Sequence record: PP763257.1
Source: Acinetobacter phage Ab5
Strand: one strand, 5' to 3'
Length of the DNA stretch: 64,000 nt
Shown: in pieces, positions 2,288 to 52,332 of the stretch
Layout of the letters: every line of letters starts with the position of its first letter
Position numbering within the stretch: position 1 is the stretch's first letter
Program-made: the position numbers and the translations under genes
The notes under the pieces: generated by a model
Database searches by the model: none
What the model saw: the letters and a program-made list of their open reading frames with translations, nothing else
Told to the model about the DNA's origin: nothing

Positions 2288-3138
2288 TATACACATTAAT
2301 CATTAAAAACTCAGATGGACAAACCTCTTCGGTTATTTCATTTAGCTCTGTTCGATCTTTCTCTGAATCATTAGGTGCTACAACCACCGATAATGTTGTT
2401 GAATACGGATTCCCTGTTTCTGATCACATGTTAGTTAGTAATATTACATTTGACTTGGATGTGATTGTTACAGGTTTTTCAGTGTTTGATGAAAATCTAG
2501 AATTATTTTGGAATGGTTCTGATTTTACAACAAATTCACCAGATCAATTGACTACACAAAATGCACACTTATTAATGAGAAAACAATTAAAGGATTTGAT
2601 TCTTAATCGCATTGTTTTCTCATTACTTATCACAGAAGATAATTCTTTTGTTCAAGATATTAATACCAAAGAAGCACAATTACGTAAGAGTATTGTTGAT
2701 GAGTATGTAAACTGTGTTTGTACAAGTTTAACACTTTCTGAATCTGAAGCAACAAGTGGTGCAATCTTTGCTAAACTAAACATCAAACAGATTCGATCAG
2801 CATTAGTTAAAACAAGAGAACTAGAACAAGGTGAAAGAGTAAGACAAATTGATCGTATTGCTCCAACACCAACAGTATCTTCACAGAATTCTTCTGATGC
2901 GAGTAAAGGTGTTGATTCAGATGGTAATGCTGACTTGTCTAAAGGAACTAAAGACATCTTAGATGGTCAAAATCAAGGTAAATTACCTAAGTCTGGTGAA
3001 ACAGGTTTGACACAAGCAGAGATTAACCGAAGACAAGTCGAGTCGAATACTATTGCAACAGAGCATGTAAAAAATCAACAAAGGATGGCTGAAGCAAAAG
3101 CGTTAGACGCTAAGAGAGAACGTGGAGATTTTAGATGA
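2284..3138 (+). CDS. tail protein immediately after the TMP (distal-tail / DNA-circularisation-protein slot)
   Basis: 284 aa. ATGA overlap with the TMP stop. Assignment is by position only. Confidence 0.4.
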   Translation: MIYTLIIKNSDGQTSSVISFSSVRSFSESLGATTTDNVVEYGFPVSDHMLVSNITFDLDVIVTGFSVFDENLELFWNGSDFTTNSPDQLTTQNAHLLMRKQLKDLILNRIVFSLLITEDNSFVQDINTKEAQLRKSIVDEYVNCVCTSLTLSESEATSGAIFAKLNIKQIRSALVKTRELEQGERVRQIDRIAPTPTVSSQNSSDASKGVDSDGNADLSKGTKDILDGQNQGKLPKSGETGLTQAEINRRQVESNTIATEHVKNQQRMAEAKALDAKRERGDFR

Positions 3139-3527
3139 TTACAGATACTACAGACATTTGGTACATCATTAAACTCTCCTTATTTAATAACACTAATTAC
3201 TATAATGATATCATAATTGATGGTATCTCTTGTCGATTTACTTTTGAATACAACGAAAGATTAGGGACGAGATATCTTTCTATTGTTACTGCTTCTGGAA
3301 CTGTACTTTTAAGTAAAACACCTTTATTTGAAGATAACGAAATCTATTTAGATAACAATGCTGATCTTATTGGTATTCACGATTGTTTCCTTAAATTAGT
3401 TAAACTTGATCAAACGATTGAGGATGACTTATTAAATTGGCAAGACAATTACATTATTTTTATTAAAGGTGTTTATGATGACATCTACAATGACTATATG
3501 AATTTTACTAAATCATTAGTCGTTTAA
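3135..3527 (+). CDS. hypothetical tail/baseplate protein
   Basis: 130 aa ORF translationally coupled (ATGA) to the upstream gene within the tail module. Confidence 0.4.
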   Translation: MITDTTDIWYIIKLSLFNNTNYYNDIIIDGISCRFTFEYNERLGTRYLSIVTASGTVLLSKTPLFEDNEIYLDNNADLIGIHDCFLKLVKLDQTIEDDLLNWQDNYIIFIKGVYDDIYNDYMNFTKSLVV

Positions 3528-44759: not shown

Positions 44760-44986
44760 TGATTAATAAAAAACAATTAATACATGATTGGTCATTACTG
44801 AGGGTAGGTGATGTGTTTAAATCCTACCATTCAGGAAGTACATATATTGTCACTGATGTCACTGAACATTATGTACAATTTAAGTATGTGAGTAATCCGA
44901 TTAAATATTTATTTGTTATATCATTGGAAATTGAGGTGTTTGATGGTTTTAAATTTGAAAAATTAAATAAGGAGGATTTTAATTGA
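44759..44986 (+). CDS. hypothetical protein
   Basis: 75 aa. Confidence 0.45.
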   Translation: MINKKQLIHDWSLLRVGDVFKSYHSGSTYIVTDVTEHYVQFKYVSNPIKYLFVISLEIEVFDGFKFEKLNKEDFN

Positions 44987-45771
44987 AATATGTTAATAAC
45001 ATAGACCATAAAGATTGTGTTGGAAAATTATGTAAATCTAAAAATTCTGGTGATTTTATTATTACTAAGTATCATGACCATAAACATGTTGAGGTTGAAT
45101 TTTTATTGAGTGGTTATGAAACTGTGAAACAATTAACTCACATTAAAAATGGTGAAGTAAGAGACCCTTATTGTCCTTCTGTTTATGGGGTGGGTATAAC
45201 AGGAGACAAATTTCCAATACATGAAAAGATTAACGCTAAGGAAAGGGTATTTACTCTACAATACAATACATGGCATTCTATGCTAGCTAGATGTTATAGC
45301 GACAAGTTTTTACTAAATAATCCAACATATACAGGTTGCTCTGTATCTGAAAACTTCAAACACTACGAATACTTTTATGAATGGTGTAACGAACAAGTAG
45401 GTTTTAAAAATGAAGGTTGGAATTTAGATAAAGACCTTTTAATTAAAGGTAATAAAATATACTCTGAAGATACTTGTGTTTTCTTACCAAGAGAATTAAA
45501 TCTGTTGTTAATAAACAATGGTGTATCAAGGGGAGACCTCCCAATAGGTGTTAGTTATCATGTTAGAAATAAAAAGTTTCAAGCAAACATTAACTTAAAC
45601 ACAGGTCGCACAAAAAGCTTAGGTTACTACAACACACCTGAAGAAGCTTTCTATACTTACAAAGAAGCTAAAGAAGATTTTATTAAAGAACAAGCTAATA
45701 AATGGAAAGATCAAATTGATCCTAGAGCTTTTGAAGCTTTGATGAATTATGAGGTAGATATTAATGATTGA
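44983..45771 (+). CDS. HNH-AP2 type homing endonuclease (paralogue 2 of 3)
   Basis: Collinear similarity with the 29943 ORF throughout. C-terminal GYYNTPEEAFYTYKEAKEDFIKEQ AP2-like domain. Confidence 0.65.
   Translation: MKYVNNIDHKDCVGKLCKSKNSGDFIITKYHDHKHVEVEFLLSGYETVKQLTHIKNGEVRDPYCPSVYGVGITGDKFPIHEKINAKERVFTLQYNTWHSMLARCYSDKFLLNNPTYTGCSVSENFKHYEYFYEWCNEQVGFKNEGWNLDKDLLIKGNKIYSEDTCVFLPRELNLLLINNGVSRGDLPIGVSYHVRNKKFQANINLNTGRTKSLGYYNTPEEAFYTYKEAKEDFIKEQANKWKDQIDPRAFEALMNYEVDIND
45619..45771 (+). repeat. dispersed DNA repeat copy B (3' end of HNH-AP2 gene)
   Basis: About 150 nt with high nucleotide identity to 30541-30692. Confidence 0.5.
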
Positions 45772-46051: not shown

Positions 46052-46054
46052 ATA

Positions 46055-46080
46055 AAAACCCGCTTAGCGCGGGTTTCTTT
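46055..46080. terminator. bidirectional rho-independent terminator at the convergent strand switch
   Basis: AAACCCGCttagcGCGGGTTT with A-run upstream and T-run downstream. Lies between the last + strand gene and the first - strand gene. Confidence 0.7.
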
Positions 46081-46089
46081 ATGTTTAAA

Positions 46090-46830
46090 TTAAAGTAATT
46101 CAATAAACTTACTTAACACTCTTTTTAATTCTGTATTGCTTAATTCACGAGTTTTCTCTCGTCCTTCTAATAGTTCATTTTTTAAACCATTAATATAACT
46201 AGAACAAGCAACGGTATTATCTGAAGTATAACCTTTAGTGTCATCAATACGATCGATAGAGTGGCTATGTTTACCTTCCATAGTCAATGTGATACCAGAA
46301 TAGTAACACTTCTTACGAGACAATAAGCGTTTCATATCAGCAAATGTTAAAGAAAATTCAATTCCTCTTTGGGCACACTGAATACTCTTATGTAATAATT
46401 TAAGACTAACATAAGTGTCAAATTTAACTTGGTTAAGCTCATTATCAATTCCTGTGAAAGCATCGTTAACGTTTCTAAGATCAATGTTGTAATCAATGTT
46501 ATAACCTTTGCGGTTGAATATACATAATGTTTTAGTTTCACATAACATATCGTATGGAGATTTTATTTCTGTAATTATCTTAATTCCATTTTCTGTTGTT
46601 ATATCTGATAATGAAATTATATCATTTAAACACAGAGCCATTAAGATACTATTATACTCTTCTACAAACATCGATTTTAAGGTGTGTATCGAGCGCTTAC
46701 AGGCATAATCAGATACGAAGTGATTAAACGTATAGGTTAAACATTTGGATGCCTTAGTGGTGAGCTTAGGCATGTCTGTGAAAGCACATAATTCAGAGAC
46801 AGTAGATTGTTTATTAAAATCGAACGACAT
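46090..46830 (-). CDS. HNH homing endonuclease (HNH_3-like)
   Basis: The C-terminal HSIDRIDDTKGYTSDNTVACSSYINGLKN matches the HNH_3 core (H.IDRI...GY..DN). 246 aa. Confidence 0.6.
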   Translation of the reverse strand: MSFDFNKQSTVSELCAFTDMPKLTTKASKCLTYTFNHFVSDYACKRSIHTLKSMFVEEYNSILMALCLNDIISLSDITTENGIKIITEIKSPYDMLCETKTLCIFNRKGYNIDYNIDLRNVNDAFTGIDNELNQVKFDTYVSLKLLHKSIQCAQRGIEFSLTFADMKRLLSRKKCYYSGITLTMEGKHSHSIDRIDDTKGYTSDNTVACSSYINGLKNELLEGREKTRELSNTELKRVLSKFIELL

Positions 46831-47104: not shown

Positions 47105-47452
47105 CTAAAGTGAAAACTTGTCAATAAAATTACGATGGGTTCTGTGACTGCCAAGATAAACTAAATTATCAATACCGTTTAAGTTAAGCATTACCCCCTC
47201 TCCAAGATATAGTCGTTCTGCTAAAAATTGGGTGTCATTAGCATCTAAACTTCCATGTCTATTAATCATGGCATCAAGACGATTTTTTATCTTTAGAATA
47301 AATAGACCAACACTACATTCGTAATTTATAAAATCTAACCCTATCCCTTCCCACCTTAGTTGAACAGTATTTGGATTATCCCAACTAGCGGGTCCGTTGT
47401 TTTTGTAATATCCTTTATTTAAAACAACAAATTCGTCTAAATTAATTTCCAT
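47105..47452 (-). CDS. hypothetical protein
   Basis: 115 aa. Confidence 0.5.
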   Translation of the reverse strand: MEINLDEFVVLNKGYYKNNGPASWDNPNTVQLRWEGIGLDFINYECSVGLFILKIKNRLDAMINRHGSLDANDTQFLAERLYLGEGVMLNLNGIDNLVYLGSHRTHRNFIDKFSL

Positions 47453-47855: not shown

Positions 47856-48047
47856 TCACTCAGAACAAATTAATAAAATTTTGTTGTATGCAACTACACT
47901 GTTGGTTTCGTAGTAGACATACTGACACATCTCTTCAGATAGATGGTGTTGTAGAACAGAATTTGATAAAACATATTGACCAAATCGTTGTGTTCTATCT
48001 CCAGCATTCCATTGTAAGTATAACTTATTAAGCTCTTTGATTGTCAT
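47856..48047 (-). CDS. hypothetical protein
   Basis: 63 aa. Confidence 0.45.
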   Translation of the reverse strand: MTIKELNKLYLQWNAGDRTQRFGQYVLSNSVLQHHLSEEMCQYVYYETNSVVAYNKILLICSE

Positions 48048-48147
48048 GGTAATGACTCCTGTGTTTGTATGATTAAATAGTATCAGGTTTTAAAATCATA
48101 GTCAACAAAAAAAGAGAACAACTTTCGTCATTCTCTTCCTTATTTAA

Positions 48148-48816
48148 TTAACCTTTATTTAATTCTTGTTTAAGCGCTTCTAACTTAGCTTCAACAGAAG
48201 GTTTAGGTTGGTCTGAATATTTCTTAACTAAATCTTCACCAAGCTTCTCAGAGACAATCTCTTTAGCTTCTACAGATGCTTTAGCCTTCTTCACACGATT
48301 ACGTAAGTCATCAATATTGTAACCGAAGTCACCTTCAGATCCACCAAGCATTTGTGCGCGAAGTTTGTAAGACTTTTCTTCCATATCCATACGTTGAATC
48401 TCAACTTCTAAACTGCGTTTCTCTGCTTGTAAAGTTTGGATGTAATTTAGTTGTTGTTCAATAACAGGCTCTAAGATATCATTAGATGCTTGTAAACTTT
48501 CAATCGTAGCTTCAAACAATTCAACACGTCCCAATGCTTGTGCTGCTTCTACATCTTCACCACGAGATACAGCATTACGTGCCACTTGATTCATTGCTAC
48601 AACTTGTTTGTTTAAAGATTTAATTTCATCTTTATTAAATTGAACTTGTTGTTGAGCTTCTTCTACACTCTTGCGTAGTTTAGATGCCTTGTTGTCAATT
48701 TGACGGATAATAGCTCCACCTTCACGTTTAATATCAACAATACTGTCTAATGCTTTCTCAGCTTTTTCATTAACAACGTTAGCTGATACAGAAAATAATT
48801 TAGATAACCATGACAT
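48148..48816 (-). CDS. PspA/IM30 (phage-shock protein A / Vipp1 / LiaH) family protein
   Basis: 222 aa all-helical coiled coil. The N-terminus MSWLSKLFSVSANVVNEKAEKALD parallels PspA [24 protein letters not shown]. The internal SRGEDVEAAQAL parallels LxKGxEDLAREAL. The C-terminus is KLEALKQEL. Confidence 0.7.
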   Translation of the reverse strand: MSWLSKLFSVSANVVNEKAEKALDSIVDIKREGGAIIRQIDNKASKLRKSVEEAQQQVQFNKDEIKSLNKQVVAMNQVARNAVSRGEDVEAAQALGRVELFEATIESLQASNDILEPVIEQQLNYIQTLQAEKRSLEVEIQRMDMEEKSYKLRAQMLGGSEGDFGYNIDDLRNRVKKAKASVEAKEIVSEKLGEDLVKKYSDQPKPSVEAKLEALKQELNKG

Positions 48817-48843
48817 AATGTCTCTCCTTTGTTTAAAATAAAT

Positions 48844-49371
48844 TTAGTATTCAAAAACGTTTGTTGTCTTCTTGGAATTAATATTATCAACAGTATTTGA
48901 ATCTGTCAACAAAAAATTATAATTAATTCCATATTTTTTATACAACTTGATATCTTCTGGATTCATACGCCTACGTAATGCTTCAACTTTAGAATGGAAC
49001 TCAGAAATAAATGGTTCTACATTTGTACAGTCATAAAGATAACCATTCGCAACTTTAGTTTGGAAATTTGGAAGTTCCTTAAATCCAAACATACTATGAT
49101 GGTCTGATAAGCGATAAGGAAAATAGTAATTCCATCTATCACCATTGGAATTTAACTCTTCTTTATAATAATCCAATAAGTTTTGATAGTTCAGTGTTAA
49201 ATTACTTACACACCATTTGTAATCCTCAATAAACATATTTCGCATAGAAGATTTCCGATTAAAACAAGCTGTCGCATGACAAGCTTCAGGTGTATCTTTA
49301 ACTAATCTTGGTAAAACAATAATAAAGAACACTGCAATTAAAACTAATATTAGAAGTAAAAGTAAAAACAT
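48844..49371 (-). CDS. membrane-anchored protein, paralogue B
   Basis: N-terminal TM (MFLLLLLILVLIAVFFIIVL). Ectodomain with conserved Cys. C-terminal PEDIKLYKKYGINYNF shared with the 49382 ORF. Confidence 0.55.
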   Translation of the reverse strand: MFLLLLLILVLIAVFFIIVLPRLVKDTPEACHATACFNRKSSMRNMFIEDYKWCVSNLTLNYQNLLDYYKEELNSNGDRWNYYFPYRLSDHHSMFGFKELPNFQTKVANGYLYDCTNVEPFISEFHSKVEALRRRMNPEDIKLYKKYGINYNFLLTDSNTVDNINSKKTTNVFEY

Positions 49372-49381
49372 AATACTCTCC

Positions 49382-49876
49382 TTAATCTTTCAAAATAGCT
49401 TTATAAGAAACCCCATATTTCTTATACAAAGCTAAATCTTCTGGTGTAATCCTATTCTTCATATCATCACAAATCTGATTAAACTCAATCATGAAATCTT
49501 TTGTCCATGATGGAATGTCGTGATTTTGCTTACACTCCGTACTTCCTGTTTTACATTTTGGAAAAGGAATGTGGTACGGATAATAATAACCATTAGTTTG
49601 AGCATATTCGCTTCTGTATTTAACAACAAGAGAAACAGCTTCCCATACCCAATATCTATAATCAATAGGGTTATTGATATTACTGTTAAAATTATAAGAA
49701 CCAAATGTTTCACAAGCCCATACATAATTAGCTTGGTATTCACGTTTAATCTGATCTAAAGATTTAACTTTTACAATGGAACCTTTATTGTTAATGATAA
49801 ATTTTCCATGAATGCAATTAAAATAAATATAAATACCTATTAGAAAACCTACACCAATAAATATCCAATCCATCAA
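49382..49876 (-). CDS. membrane-anchored protein, paralogue A
   Basis: N-terminal TM (MMDWIFIGVGFLIGIYIYF). YYYPYH and PEDLALYKKYGVSYKAIL motifs shared with the 48844 ORF. Confidence 0.55.
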   Translation of the reverse strand: MMDWIFIGVGFLIGIYIYFNCIHGKFIINNKGSIVKVKSLDQIKREYQANYVWACETFGSYNFNSNINNPIDYRYWVWEAVSLVVKYRSEYAQTNGYYYPYHIPFPKCKTGSTECKQNHDIPSWTKDFMIEFNQICDDMKNRITPEDLALYKKYGVSYKAILKD

Positions 49877-50085
49877 TCTTTCTCCATCTGTTCTTTAACA
49901 AAATCTTGAAACTCACTAGGGTGCATTCGTTTATCTGACAATTTAGAATATGACAGTATGTCATGATGAGGGTAATATTTAAATATCATTTCTCGTGCTT
50001 CATTAATATCTTTAGCTAAAATGTAAACTTTACCTGTTGAAATAACAAGTAGCTTCGGATAGAACTCAAATACATAAGGGTACAT
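49873..50085 (-). CDS. small protein of the ExxEA family
   Basis: 70 aa. MYPYVFEFYP...VYILAKDINEAREMIFKY. Confidence 0.45.
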   Translation of the reverse strand: MYPYVFEFYPKLLVISTGKVYILAKDINEAREMIFKYYPHHDILSYSKLSDKRMHPSEFQDFVKEQMEKD

Positions 50086-50101
50086 AAAAATCTCCTGAAG
50101 A

Positions 50102-50596
50102 TCACTTTAATCGATCCACAAATGATAACCTCAACATAATTCTTTTGCAAGCTTTTTCTACAATAGGTGACTGATGATATTCTCTGTTATATTTGTAAAT
50201 AGAATTAGGTTCTGTCTCTCCAATCAATTTGTATTCACCGTCAACTAAATCAAAGAACTTGGTGCCACCACTACTTGTATATAATAAATGAGTTTCTTGT
50301 TTATTAGGATGATTAAAGTCTTTAGTCCAATCTAAATGCACCTGATTCAAATGATCACCACTATCACCTTCTTTGAGGTTGCGTACTTTAACATCAAGAT
50401 AACATAATTCGTATTGATTGAATAAAGTTCTAGAGTTGTCTAACATAACTAAAATAATACTTTGAATTTGCTCATCGAAAAAGTCTGATATAAATCTTAA
50501 TAGATGCAAACCATTATTAATTCTTTTGTACTTAATTTCATGTAAAGGTGTATTGGTGAAATCAAAACTACCTTCAAATGTTTTAATCTTTTGCAT
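50102..50596 (-). CDS. hypothetical protein
   Basis: 164 aa. Confidence 0.5.
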   Translation of the reverse strand: MQKIKTFEGSFDFTNTPLHEIKYKRINNGLHLLRFISDFFDEQIQSIILVMLDNSRTLFNQYELCYLDVKVRNLKEGDSGDHLNQVHLDWTKDFNHPNKQETHLLYTSSGGTKFFDLVDGEYKLIGETEPNSIYKYNREYHQSPIVEKACKRIMLRLSFVDRLK

Positions 50597-51549: not shown

Positions 51550-52332
51550 TTATTGTGTTACACTTGTTTTTAGATCAATATCTGGAACAATTACTTCAGG
51601 TTTAAATTTATTAACAATGGAATTATAAACTCTTTCATCTAACTGATCTTTATATCCTTCTACAATTTTAGAAACTATATCATACTTCTTTGCTTTGTAA
51701 ATATCAATAGCTTCTTTTTCGTTTTTAAACGATCCGAAATATAAATTAGTATTATTGCAACCAACGTACACCTCATAGGAGCCATATTTATTCACCATTA
51801 TACCTTGAGGATGACTACTTAATTTAGGTTGTTTTCTAAATAAATTGTTCACATGTTGTGGTACAAAACAACATGTGTCTTCACTATAAAGTAAATTGCC
51901 ATCAGAAAGTATATCTTTGTCTAATGCCCAACCCTTCAAACCGAAACCTTTTTGATTAAGACACCATTTTTGAAAGTAATCTAATCGCTTAAAGTTTTCA
52001 GAAACCTGACAACCTTGATATGTGGGCTGCTTTTCCTGTGTTACTTCATTATAACACCTAGATAGCATACCTCTCCAAATATTATACGAATTTGTTAACT
52101 TCCCGTTTTCTTTAACAATACCGTCTCCAACTATACCAACGTTATAAACACTTGGTTGTTCTTTGTCTCTAATATTCCCCTTCTTTAATTGTGTAAGTTG
52201 AACATTTACTCTAGTTCCTGTGTTTTTAAATTCAACAAGAACATCTTTATTGTTTGTGTACTCTAAAACAACAACTTCACCAAAATTTGTTGTTTGAAAA
52301 GTTAAACCAACATAGTTAGAATTTAATTTCAC
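51550..52332 (-). CDS. HNH-AP2 type homing endonuclease (paralogue 3 of 3)
   Basis: The central region GWALDKDILSDGNLLYSEDTCCFVPQHVNNLF parallels [31 protein letters not shown] of the 29943 ORF. The C-terminus is more diverged. Confidence 0.6.
   Translation of the reverse strand: MKLNSNYVGLTFQTTNFGEVVVLEYTNNKDVLVEFKNTGTRVNVQLTQLKKGNIRDKEQPSVYNVGIVGDGIVKENGKLTNSYNIWRGMLSRCYNEVTQEKQPTYQGCQVSENFKRLDYFQKWCLNQKGFGLKGWALDKDILSDGNLLYSEDTCCFVPQHVNNLFRKQPKLSSHPQGIMVNKYGSYEVYVGCNNTNLYFGSFKNEKEAIDIYKAKKYDIVSKIVEGYKDQLDERVYNSIVNKFKPEVIVPDIDLKTSVTQ

Follow-up and report, generated by a model that had tools for sequence, protein, structure and literature searches.

A divergent PspA/IM30 homologue encoded beside two paralogous membrane-anchored proteins in Acinetobacter phage Ab5

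Acinetobacter phage Ab5 (PP763257.1), a lytic Acinetobacter baumannii myophage of ~93 kb, was analysed over a stretch of 64,000 nucleotides (nt), hereafter called the window, in which three genes of the minus strand encode a homologue of PspA/IM30 and two paralogous membrane-anchored proteins, designated here anchors A and B. The product of 222 amino acids (aa) is a true but divergent PspA/IM30 (ESCRT-III-like) protein. What is new here, as far as sequence comparison can tell, is the conserved, co-inherited and fast-evolving anchor family that is paired with a phage-specific clade of PspA proteins, a partnership that appears not to have been described before. With slightly better than even confidence, we propose that the trio is a phage-borne minimal Psp-like membrane-maintenance module, in which the anchors would recruit PspA to the inner membrane and so preserve its integrity during infection. 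The three open reading frames (ORFs) reported in the preliminary description of this DNA are all present, co-oriented and tightly spaced:

48148..48816, minus strand: divergent PspA/IM30 (ESCRT-III-like) homologue, 222 aa, the last gene of the transcription unit (ORF with profile and fold evidence)
48844..49371, minus strand: anchor paralogue A, 175 aa, with an N-terminal transmembrane segment (residues 1-21), a predicted cytoplasmic domain and the C-terminal motif NPEDIKLYKKYGINY
49382..49876, minus strand: anchor paralogue B, with an N-terminal transmembrane segment, a predicted cytoplasmic domain and the C-terminal motif TPEDLALYKKYGVSY

A divergent member of the PspA/IM30 family

The preliminary description had aligned the 222-aa product by eye with the PspA/IM30 family, and this assignment is borne out by profile searches, profile-profile alignment, solved structures and the predicted fold, which agree with each other. 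A search with the family profile (hmmsearch) against 1.84 billion representative proteins returned 41 matches at E <= 1e-3, all of them ~220-250 aa long, full-length and colinear. The nearer matches form a divergent clade from phage-like contigs, and the farther ones (P0031, P0032, P0034, P0036, P0037, P0039, P0041, P0046 and P0051; library-wide E-values of 6.5e-8 to 1e-3) score 68-108 bits on PF04012, for which the cutoff is 33.9. All 12 of the 12 close family members match PF04012 (best E 1e-5). When the 22-member phage clade was aligned by hhalign with 11 true PF04012 members, which had been picked from the phage-profile matches but whose Pfam membership is independent of that choice, a probability of 99.8% and an E-value of 7e-30 were obtained over 226 columns, and the hairpin-tip motif A..AV..G.D.DA..AL lines up between the phage clade and Vipp1/PspA. 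Among PHROG families, the protein matches phrog_26980 (E = 2e-54) and no other.

When PDB sequences were searched with the protein alone or with a profile built from 11 close relatives, no PspA/Vipp1 match was found, just designed proteins and coiled coils; with the clade profile, the top 12 matches were all Vipp1 or PspA, the best being 6zvr (E = 3.8e-9, residues 8-220 aligned to 4-217). In the AlphaFold2 (AF2) model of the 222-aa protein (pLDDT 79.8, pTM 0.66), helices span residues 3-84, 88-156, 168-183, 190-201 and 208-221, the first two forming a long hairpin that is followed by the three short C-terminal ones. The ESCRT-III-like hairpin that had been expected is therefore present in the model, and Foldseek, run against 350,542 chains, placed three Vipp1 structures on top (7o3w, 8qbs and 8qbw), with PspA structures 7abk and 9hzm also listed. 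The Vipp1 E-values are modest (from 3.6e-3, with TM-scores of ~0.5-0.57), which is common where long helical hairpins are compared. Residues 1-22, where the membrane-binding amphipathic helix alpha0 of the family would be expected, are modelled as helical at low pLDDT and align to Vipp1 from residue 4 on.

The expected match to PF04012 itself held in part, given that the single sequence stays below the cutoff (14.6 against 33.9 bits), whereas the family and clade profiles reach true PF04012 members. We consider that the deeper profile and structure evidence overrides this sub-threshold score. A quite different reading would be that the 222-aa protein is a generic coiled coil, for example a regulator, as in the annotation 'transcription regulation protein' that exists for BS46, with a merely compositional likeness to PspA and with unrelated neighbours upstream. 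Its Pfam and NCBIfam scores do lie below threshold, among coiled-coil noise such as SMC and JetC, the PADLOC and NCBIfam output for the cassette consists of such noise only, and the Foldseek E-value is only ~4e-3. However, the matches are full-length and colinear and extend transitively to proteins with up to 108 bits on PF04012, the hhalign E-value is 7e-30, the top 12 PDB matches are exclusively Vipp1/PspA, and synteny between anchor and PspA is kept down to ~35% PspA identity. This reading is thus already largely refuted, and we regard it as barely credible.

The clade is confined to phages as far as it has been observed. A tblastn search over 50,697 phage records detected it in 26 records, all of Acinetobacter phages, which fall into three groups (TaPaz/BS46/Phab24, Acibel004, and Saclayvirus of ~102-105 kb), and a scan of 185,579 species genomes did not find it. 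All its occurrences so far are in phages or phage-like contigs, and those in sequenced isolates are confined to Acinetobacter phages. The PspA label as such is not new, since it is already public for orthologues: TaPaz_151, Phab24_id093, BS46 gp115, Acibel004_66 and the genes of phiAbaA1 and Aci05 (Aci05_134), all of the same clade, have PspA-type product names in public records ('putative PspA/IM30 family protein', 'putative shock protein A' or 'putative phage-shock protein' being in use). The novelty of a phage-carried PspA, implied in the preliminary description, therefore has to be given up, orthologues being so named in GenBank and a Kuttervirus PspA having been discussed in print (PMC9409062). 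The latter, Gp_125 of the Salmonella phage SeF3a (phrog_1203), was proposed as a possible anti-abortive-infection factor (PMC9409062) and represents a separate lineage, the window protein matching only phrog_26980. Another 'PspA/IM30 family protein', found in BFVD for Acinetobacter phage ME3, is 18% identical and also of a distinct lineage. Our literature search turned up no experiments on a phage PspA, the TaPaz paper yielded no remark on these genes, and the records and papers found on phage PspA homologues make no mention of conserved anchor partners. An eLife paper on pspA*, which deals with capsule loss in Klebsiella, is only tangential.

The anchor family and its pairing with the phage PspA clade

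The two proteins encoded upstream are paralogous (BLASTP E = 3e-11, 29% identity over ~129 aa), and each carries a single N-terminal transmembrane anchor (KD19 of the hydrophobic segment 3.75 in anchor A and 1.98 in anchor B), both as first described. The conserved Cys/Tyr-rich ectodomain also attributed to them needs correction. The stretches YYYPYH/YYFPYR and PEDxxLYKKYG(V/I)xY are indeed present in both anchors and align with each other, but across the wider family neither the cysteines nor the YYxPY stretch are conserved; conserved disulfide-forming or zinc-binding cysteines were accordingly rejected, because the cysteines vary. Near-invariant in the wider family are W53, F128, F132 and the C-terminal motif, and the general pattern of conservation comprises Y-x-W near residue 50, two Phe residues in a helix near residue 130 and a C-terminal [ED]D-h-x-L-Y-K-K-Y-G-[IV]. 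We define the family by these three elements (Y-x-W, F...F and the C-terminal motif), together with an N-terminal transmembrane segment that has no preceding Lys or Arg and a location upstream of a phage PspA gene.

Neither anchor has a match in Pfam, PHROG, NCBIfam or PADLOC, and among 5.8 billion proteins their family is limited to 26 clusters, all of which lack both a Pfam domain and an informative name. Scans of the 185,579 species genomes and of IMG/VR for anchors returned nothing, the search patterns being narrow in both, and Foldseek with the model of anchor B gave no fold match (best E = 4.4). The charge distribution is more telling. Among 36 family members, no Lys or Arg precedes the hydrophobic segment, ahead of which lie N-tails of 0-6 residues, and 85 occur in the 15 residues after it. 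Positive charges mark the cytoplasmic side of membrane proteins (the positive-inside rule); because Lys and Arg are found only after the segment, the anchors are predicted to be N-out/C-in, with their ~140-residue domain in the cytoplasm, on the same side as PspA, instead of forming an ectodomain. With this pattern, neither a Sec signal peptide nor an N-in signal anchor is likely.

We compared the neighbourhoods of PspA-clade genes in every relative with sequence available. In 12 of the 12 informative loci, among which PspA identity is as low as ~35%, the PspA-like gene has a statistically supported anchor homologue upstream of it (BLASTP or hidden Markov model (HMM) E of 1e-10 to 1e-63). Two copies are present in the window, Ab3-TPeters, TaPaz, Phab24 and BS46, and one in Acibel004, Aci05, D22 and the metagenomic or IMG/VR contigs L007, L008, L009 and L018. 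Orthologues of anchor A were recognised in TaPaz, Phab24, BS46, Ab3, Acibel004 and L008, and those of anchor B in TaPaz, Phab24, BS46, Ab3, L007, L009, L018, Aci05 and D22. Since N-terminal anchors are rare in the window phage (2 of 61 coding-strand ORFs of >=100 aa), this association is far beyond chance, and the suggestion that the paralogues are membrane partners of the PspA-like protein gains in weight, a family member standing upstream of that gene in every informative relative. In the sibling phages B9 and phiAB441, all three genes are missing together. Given the upstream linkage in all informative loci and this joint absence, the trio behaves as a single accessory cassette. Beside the PspA gene of L016, L023 and L024, the nearest true PF04012 relatives, other neighbours are found.

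In five further loci (L010, L012, L013, L015 and L019) an N-terminally anchored protein of 116-234 aa occupies the same position, its homology being unproven (E 0.01 to 0.9). An attempt to include the transmembrane proteins of L010, L012, L013 and L019 in the anchor family failed (HMM E 0.01-0.9, with or without the transmembrane region), and the likeness is one of architecture only. In Aci05, D22 and phiAbaA1, a gene for a soluble protein, variable and 263-351 aa long, is inserted between anchor and PspA (L021 1415-2434; L022 1379-2434; L019 2649-3440); the protein matches nothing in Pfam and may be a third component of the module in the Saclayvirus group.

Three of the contigs offered side observations. 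In L008, a Band_7/SPFH (flotillin-like) gene (2580-3383; PF01145, 52.9 bits) is located two genes upstream of the anchor-PspA pair. In L007, a truncated gene downstream of the PspA-like gene (2057-2776) has a weak match to the anchor HMM (E = 0.0012 among ~400-500 ORFs) and may be a diverged second anchor. In L009 (1-4349), the pair is found in a T4-like context, with a dCMP deaminase, a Cpn10/gp31-like gene and the Phage_30_3 family, so that it is not confined to one phage lineage.

The anchors diverge much faster than the genes around them, as seen in amino acid identities:

Window versus TaPaz: PspA-like protein 95%; flanking genes 91-96%; anchor A 58%; anchor B 73%
Phab24 versus BS46: PspA-like protein 98%; flanking genes 93-100%; anchor A 92%; anchor B 71%

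By the Nei-Gojobori method, the ratio of nonsynonymous to synonymous substitution rates (dN/dS) is 0.33-0.58 for the anchors, 0.04-0.11 for PspA and 0.00-0.20 for flanking genes, which indicates that the anchors are under relaxed or diversifying constraint. Their dS is also raised in one comparison, and this suggests some exchange of alleles. Fast anchor evolution together with the accessory distribution would lean towards a role related to conflict.

Two readings of the cassette draw on this pattern. In the first, it would be an anti-defence (anti-abortive-infection) module, the anchors intercepting or sensing membrane-disrupting host effectors and the phage PspA sealing lesions, so that cells survive until progeny are made. 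Elevated dN/dS and local divergence of the anchors while PspA is conserved, presence in some sibling phages only, a location among small genes of host-takeover type and publication of the same idea for the Kuttervirus PspA (PMC9409062) are in keeping with it, but the anchors match no family in PADLOC or elsewhere, and their dN/dS is below 1. We consider it rather unlikely in this specific form; it is a more specific version of the membrane-maintenance reading, not its contradiction. In the second, the cassette would serve superinfection exclusion or resistance to lysis from without, with anchors resembling Imm and Sp of T4 that block entry of secondary DNA and a PspA-like protein that reinforces the entry sites. 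Small, single-pass anchors encoded in an early-type gene array would suit such a function, as would quick divergence and duplication, expected of proteins facing competitor phages, and restriction of the clade to Acinetobacter phages with common hosts. On the other hand, the predicted topology leaves N-tails of 0-6 residues in the periplasm, which is odd for blocking incoming DNA or lysozyme, and the Pfam and PHROG searches showed no resemblance to known exclusion proteins, Imm and Sp included. The second reading seems to us decidedly unlikely.

Transcription unit and genomic setting

Gaps of 10 nt and 27 nt separate the genes of the trio; a GGAG-type ribosome-binding site is present in both, and a terminator in neither. 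The following elements adjoin the trio:

48100..48141, minus strand: hairpin with a GAAA loop and a U-tract behind it, an intrinsic terminator that follows the PspA-like gene (RNA folding)
48070..48104, minus strand: putative sigma-70-like promoter, TTGACT-17 nt-TACTAT, which would serve the next downstream gene (47856-48047), a consensus match read off the sequence
49873..50596, minus strand: two upstream co-oriented genes of 164 aa (phrog_21561, E = 4e-14) and 70 aa (ORFs, with a 16-nt gap and a stop/start overlap)

The terminator hairpin is markedly stable (dG -17.2 kcal/mol, z -4.23, 0 of 200 shuffled sequences being as stable), and terminators are annotated at the same relative site in the records of Phab24 and Acibel004. 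The promoter-like element is a candidate for marking the end of the transcription unit of the cassette, and the PspA-like gene closes this unit, since both the hairpin and the promoter-like element for the next gene directly follow the 222-aa gene. At the other end, the genes of 164 aa and 70 aa, which are preceded by a hairpin at 50644-50619, probably share the transcription unit with the trio. They are not part of the module proper, because they are kept in B9 and phiAB441, both of which lack the cassette.

For anchor B, two starts come into question, TTG at 49876 (164 aa) and ATG at 49873 (163 aa). The ATG is probably the likelier of the two, because it forms a TGATG overlap with the stop of the upstream 70-aa ORF and agrees with the annotated starts of TaPaz_153 and Ab3_171 and with the 163-aa cluster P0052. 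A TTGACA-17-TAATAT site with an extended TG is located at 48881-48909 (minus strand), inside the 3' end of anchor A and ~65 nt upstream of the start codon of the PspA-like gene. It could drive this gene independently of the anchors, promoter-like sites not being enriched here over shuffled sequence. In Acibel004, a promoter is annotated ahead of the PspA gene.

Over the cassette region, the nearest relatives are Ab3-TPeters (95.7% identical) and TaPaz (~90%), BS46 and Phab24 being more distant. In TaPaz, tail, baseplate, endolysin, tailspike, replication and nucleotide-metabolism genes form a block on the plus strand, and the cassette belongs to a run of small genes of unknown function that faces this block close to the end of the genome; ~40 kb and a change of strand separate the cassette from the endolysin. 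In the window, two sign changes of the GC skew, at ~46 kb and ~60 kb (about 60500), delimit a minus-strand block of ~14 kb with small, mostly unknown genes, and a bidirectional terminator hairpin (46054-46078) is placed where plus- and minus-strand transcription converge at ~46 kb.

A role in the virion or as a lysis cassette is disfavoured by this distance of ~40 kb from the endolysin and structural genes and by the opposite strand. The anchors themselves, with a single transmembrane segment, a soluble domain of ~140 aa and no match to a lysis family, differ from what a lysis cassette would contain. It could still be imagined that the module controls the timing of lysis. PspA preserves the proton-motive force, whose collapse triggers holins, and a membrane-associated module that stabilises this force would, in the manner of an antiholin, avoid premature holin triggering and allow a larger burst. 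Yet the cassette is far from the endolysin, the sibling phages B9 and phiAB441 manage without it, and no holin, antiholin or spanin signature was detected in Pfam or PHROG, so that we regard control of lysis timing as very improbable.

Genes related to homing endonucleases surround the cassette:

44983-45771, plus strand: ORF of 262 aa, AP2-domain homing-endonuclease-like (sub-threshold, E = 4e-5)
51550-52332, minus strand: related ORF of 260 aa, named 'HNH endonuclease' in Ab3-TPeters
46090-46830, minus strand: HNH protein of 246 aa, phrog_3118

In B9 (L005 4222-5010) and phiAB441 (L006 3755-4543), the slot of the cassette is taken by a homing-endonuclease-like gene (262 aa, AP2 domain) with 59% identity to the one at 44983-45771 of the window, which suggests that mobile endonuclease genes drive local mosaicism. 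Just downstream of the cassette position, TaPaz (TaPaz_149 and TaPaz_150; L001 3800-4682) and B9 (L005 3301-4183) have two extra genes, encoding an acidic protein of 171 aa and one of 124 aa. This pair is missing from the window and from Ab3-TPeters, and a 115-aa gene at 47105-47452 is present in the window and not in TaPaz. These differences are further evidence that the surroundings of the cassette are a local hotspot of gene exchange.

A putative membrane-maintenance module and its relation to known Psp systems

How the favoured module, a minimal Psp-like system for membrane maintenance, might operate can be outlined as follows. Expressed from what would be an early or host-takeover array, the anchors would be single-pass inner-membrane proteins, N-out/C-in, with their conserved C-terminal helices in the cytoplasm, where these helices could recruit or nucleate the soluble PspA-like protein at the cytoplasmic face of the inner membrane. 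PspB/C, LiaI, PspM and YdjG/H recruit their cognate PspA proteins to the membrane, and the recruitment proposed here would be analogous. During infection, the PspA-like polymer may then prevent leaks in the inner membrane and maintain the proton-motive force. Candidate insults would be entry of the phage's own genome, superinfecting phages and membrane-depolarising effectors of host defence (abortive infection), and the presumed outcome would be a productive cycle with correctly timed lysis.

Several points weigh against this proposal. As a single sequence, the 222-aa protein scores below threshold both on PF04012 (14.6 bits, E = 0.025, cutoff 33.9), although colinearly (6-193 to 5-188 of 220), and on the NCBIfam PspA equivalog (14.8 bits against a cutoff of 243). 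Because it fails both cutoffs, it is a far outlier of the PspA family, and its function may have drifted. The hydrophobic moment of its N-terminus, 0.31-0.37, is just slightly above the protein-wide mean of 0.29. As to the anchors, the AF2 model of anchor B is poor (pLDDT 60.5), helices 122-142 and 145-154 being its best-defined parts, dN/dS stays below 1, so that positive selection is not proven, and direct pairing with PspA may not be universal, given the insert in the Aci05/D22/phiAbaA1 group. The cassette looks like a gene set of an early or host-takeover region, with a timing that we infer from position only, and the promoter scan of the window region returned 97 sites against 92 expected from shuffled AT-rich sequence, which is no enrichment. 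Finally, we found no statement in the literature on whether Acinetobacter has a Psp system of its own.

A bolder idea, which we put forward tentatively and with considerable doubt, is that of a viral membrane-repair and counter-defence system, in which diversifying anchors would detect or neutralise membrane-breaching effectors of the host or of rival phages and nucleate an ESCRT-III-like polymer that reseals the inner membrane, keeping the cell energised until lysis. Were this so, a virus would for the first time be seen to put a bacterial ESCRT-III homologue to functional use, and the anchors would be adaptors of a new class.

PspA, Vipp1 and ESCRT-III belong to a conserved cellular membrane-repair machinery, whose targeting to the damaged bacterial membrane is still debated. 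A phage module of two or three genes, made of a pared-down PspA and dedicated anchors, could offer a compact, regulator-free system for studying this recruitment, and it prompts the question whether lytic phages take an active part in protecting the very host membrane that they later destroy. There is also a practical side, because phages of the TaPaz/BS46/Phab24 group and Saclayvirus are therapy candidates against A. baumannii, and an accessory membrane cassette could alter burst size, superinfection behaviour, the host range among strains that carry defences and the interplay of phage with antibiotics such as colistin. The anchor family, besides, illustrates neatly how conserved synteny can be the only clue to the role of uncharacterised phage genes.

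Compared with known systems, the 222-aa protein resembles PspA, Vipp1 (IM30) and LiaH (PF04012) in its length of ~220 aa, in the long hairpin with three short C-terminal helices, in the hairpin-tip motif and in its full-length profile and fold matches. It differs from them in being encoded by lytic phages, in falling below the Pfam and NCBIfam cutoffs as a single sequence and in lying in a cassette without a PspF-type regulator or sigma-54 context. The arrangement likewise departs from the canonical PspF-PspABC system, given that the paralogues have no match to PspB or PspC, the cassette contains no regulator gene and the promoter-like elements are of the sigma-70 type. PspA associates with the flotillin-like YdjI in Bacillus, and links between PspA and Band_7 proteins are known from comparative genomics; the Band_7/SPFH gene near the module of L008 recalls YdjI of B. 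subtilis. Membrane partners adjoining PspA are a known theme (PMC11237479), and, like PspB and PspC of E. coli, LiaI (the anchor of LiaH) and YdjG/YdjH/YdjI of B. subtilis and mycobacterial PspM, the phage anchors are small membrane proteins encoded beside PspA. The differences are that no similarity to PspB, PspC, LiaI or another described family could be detected in sequence or fold, and that the phage anchors are duplicated in the TaPaz/BS46/Phab24 group and evolve much faster than the PspA that, by analogy, they would anchor.

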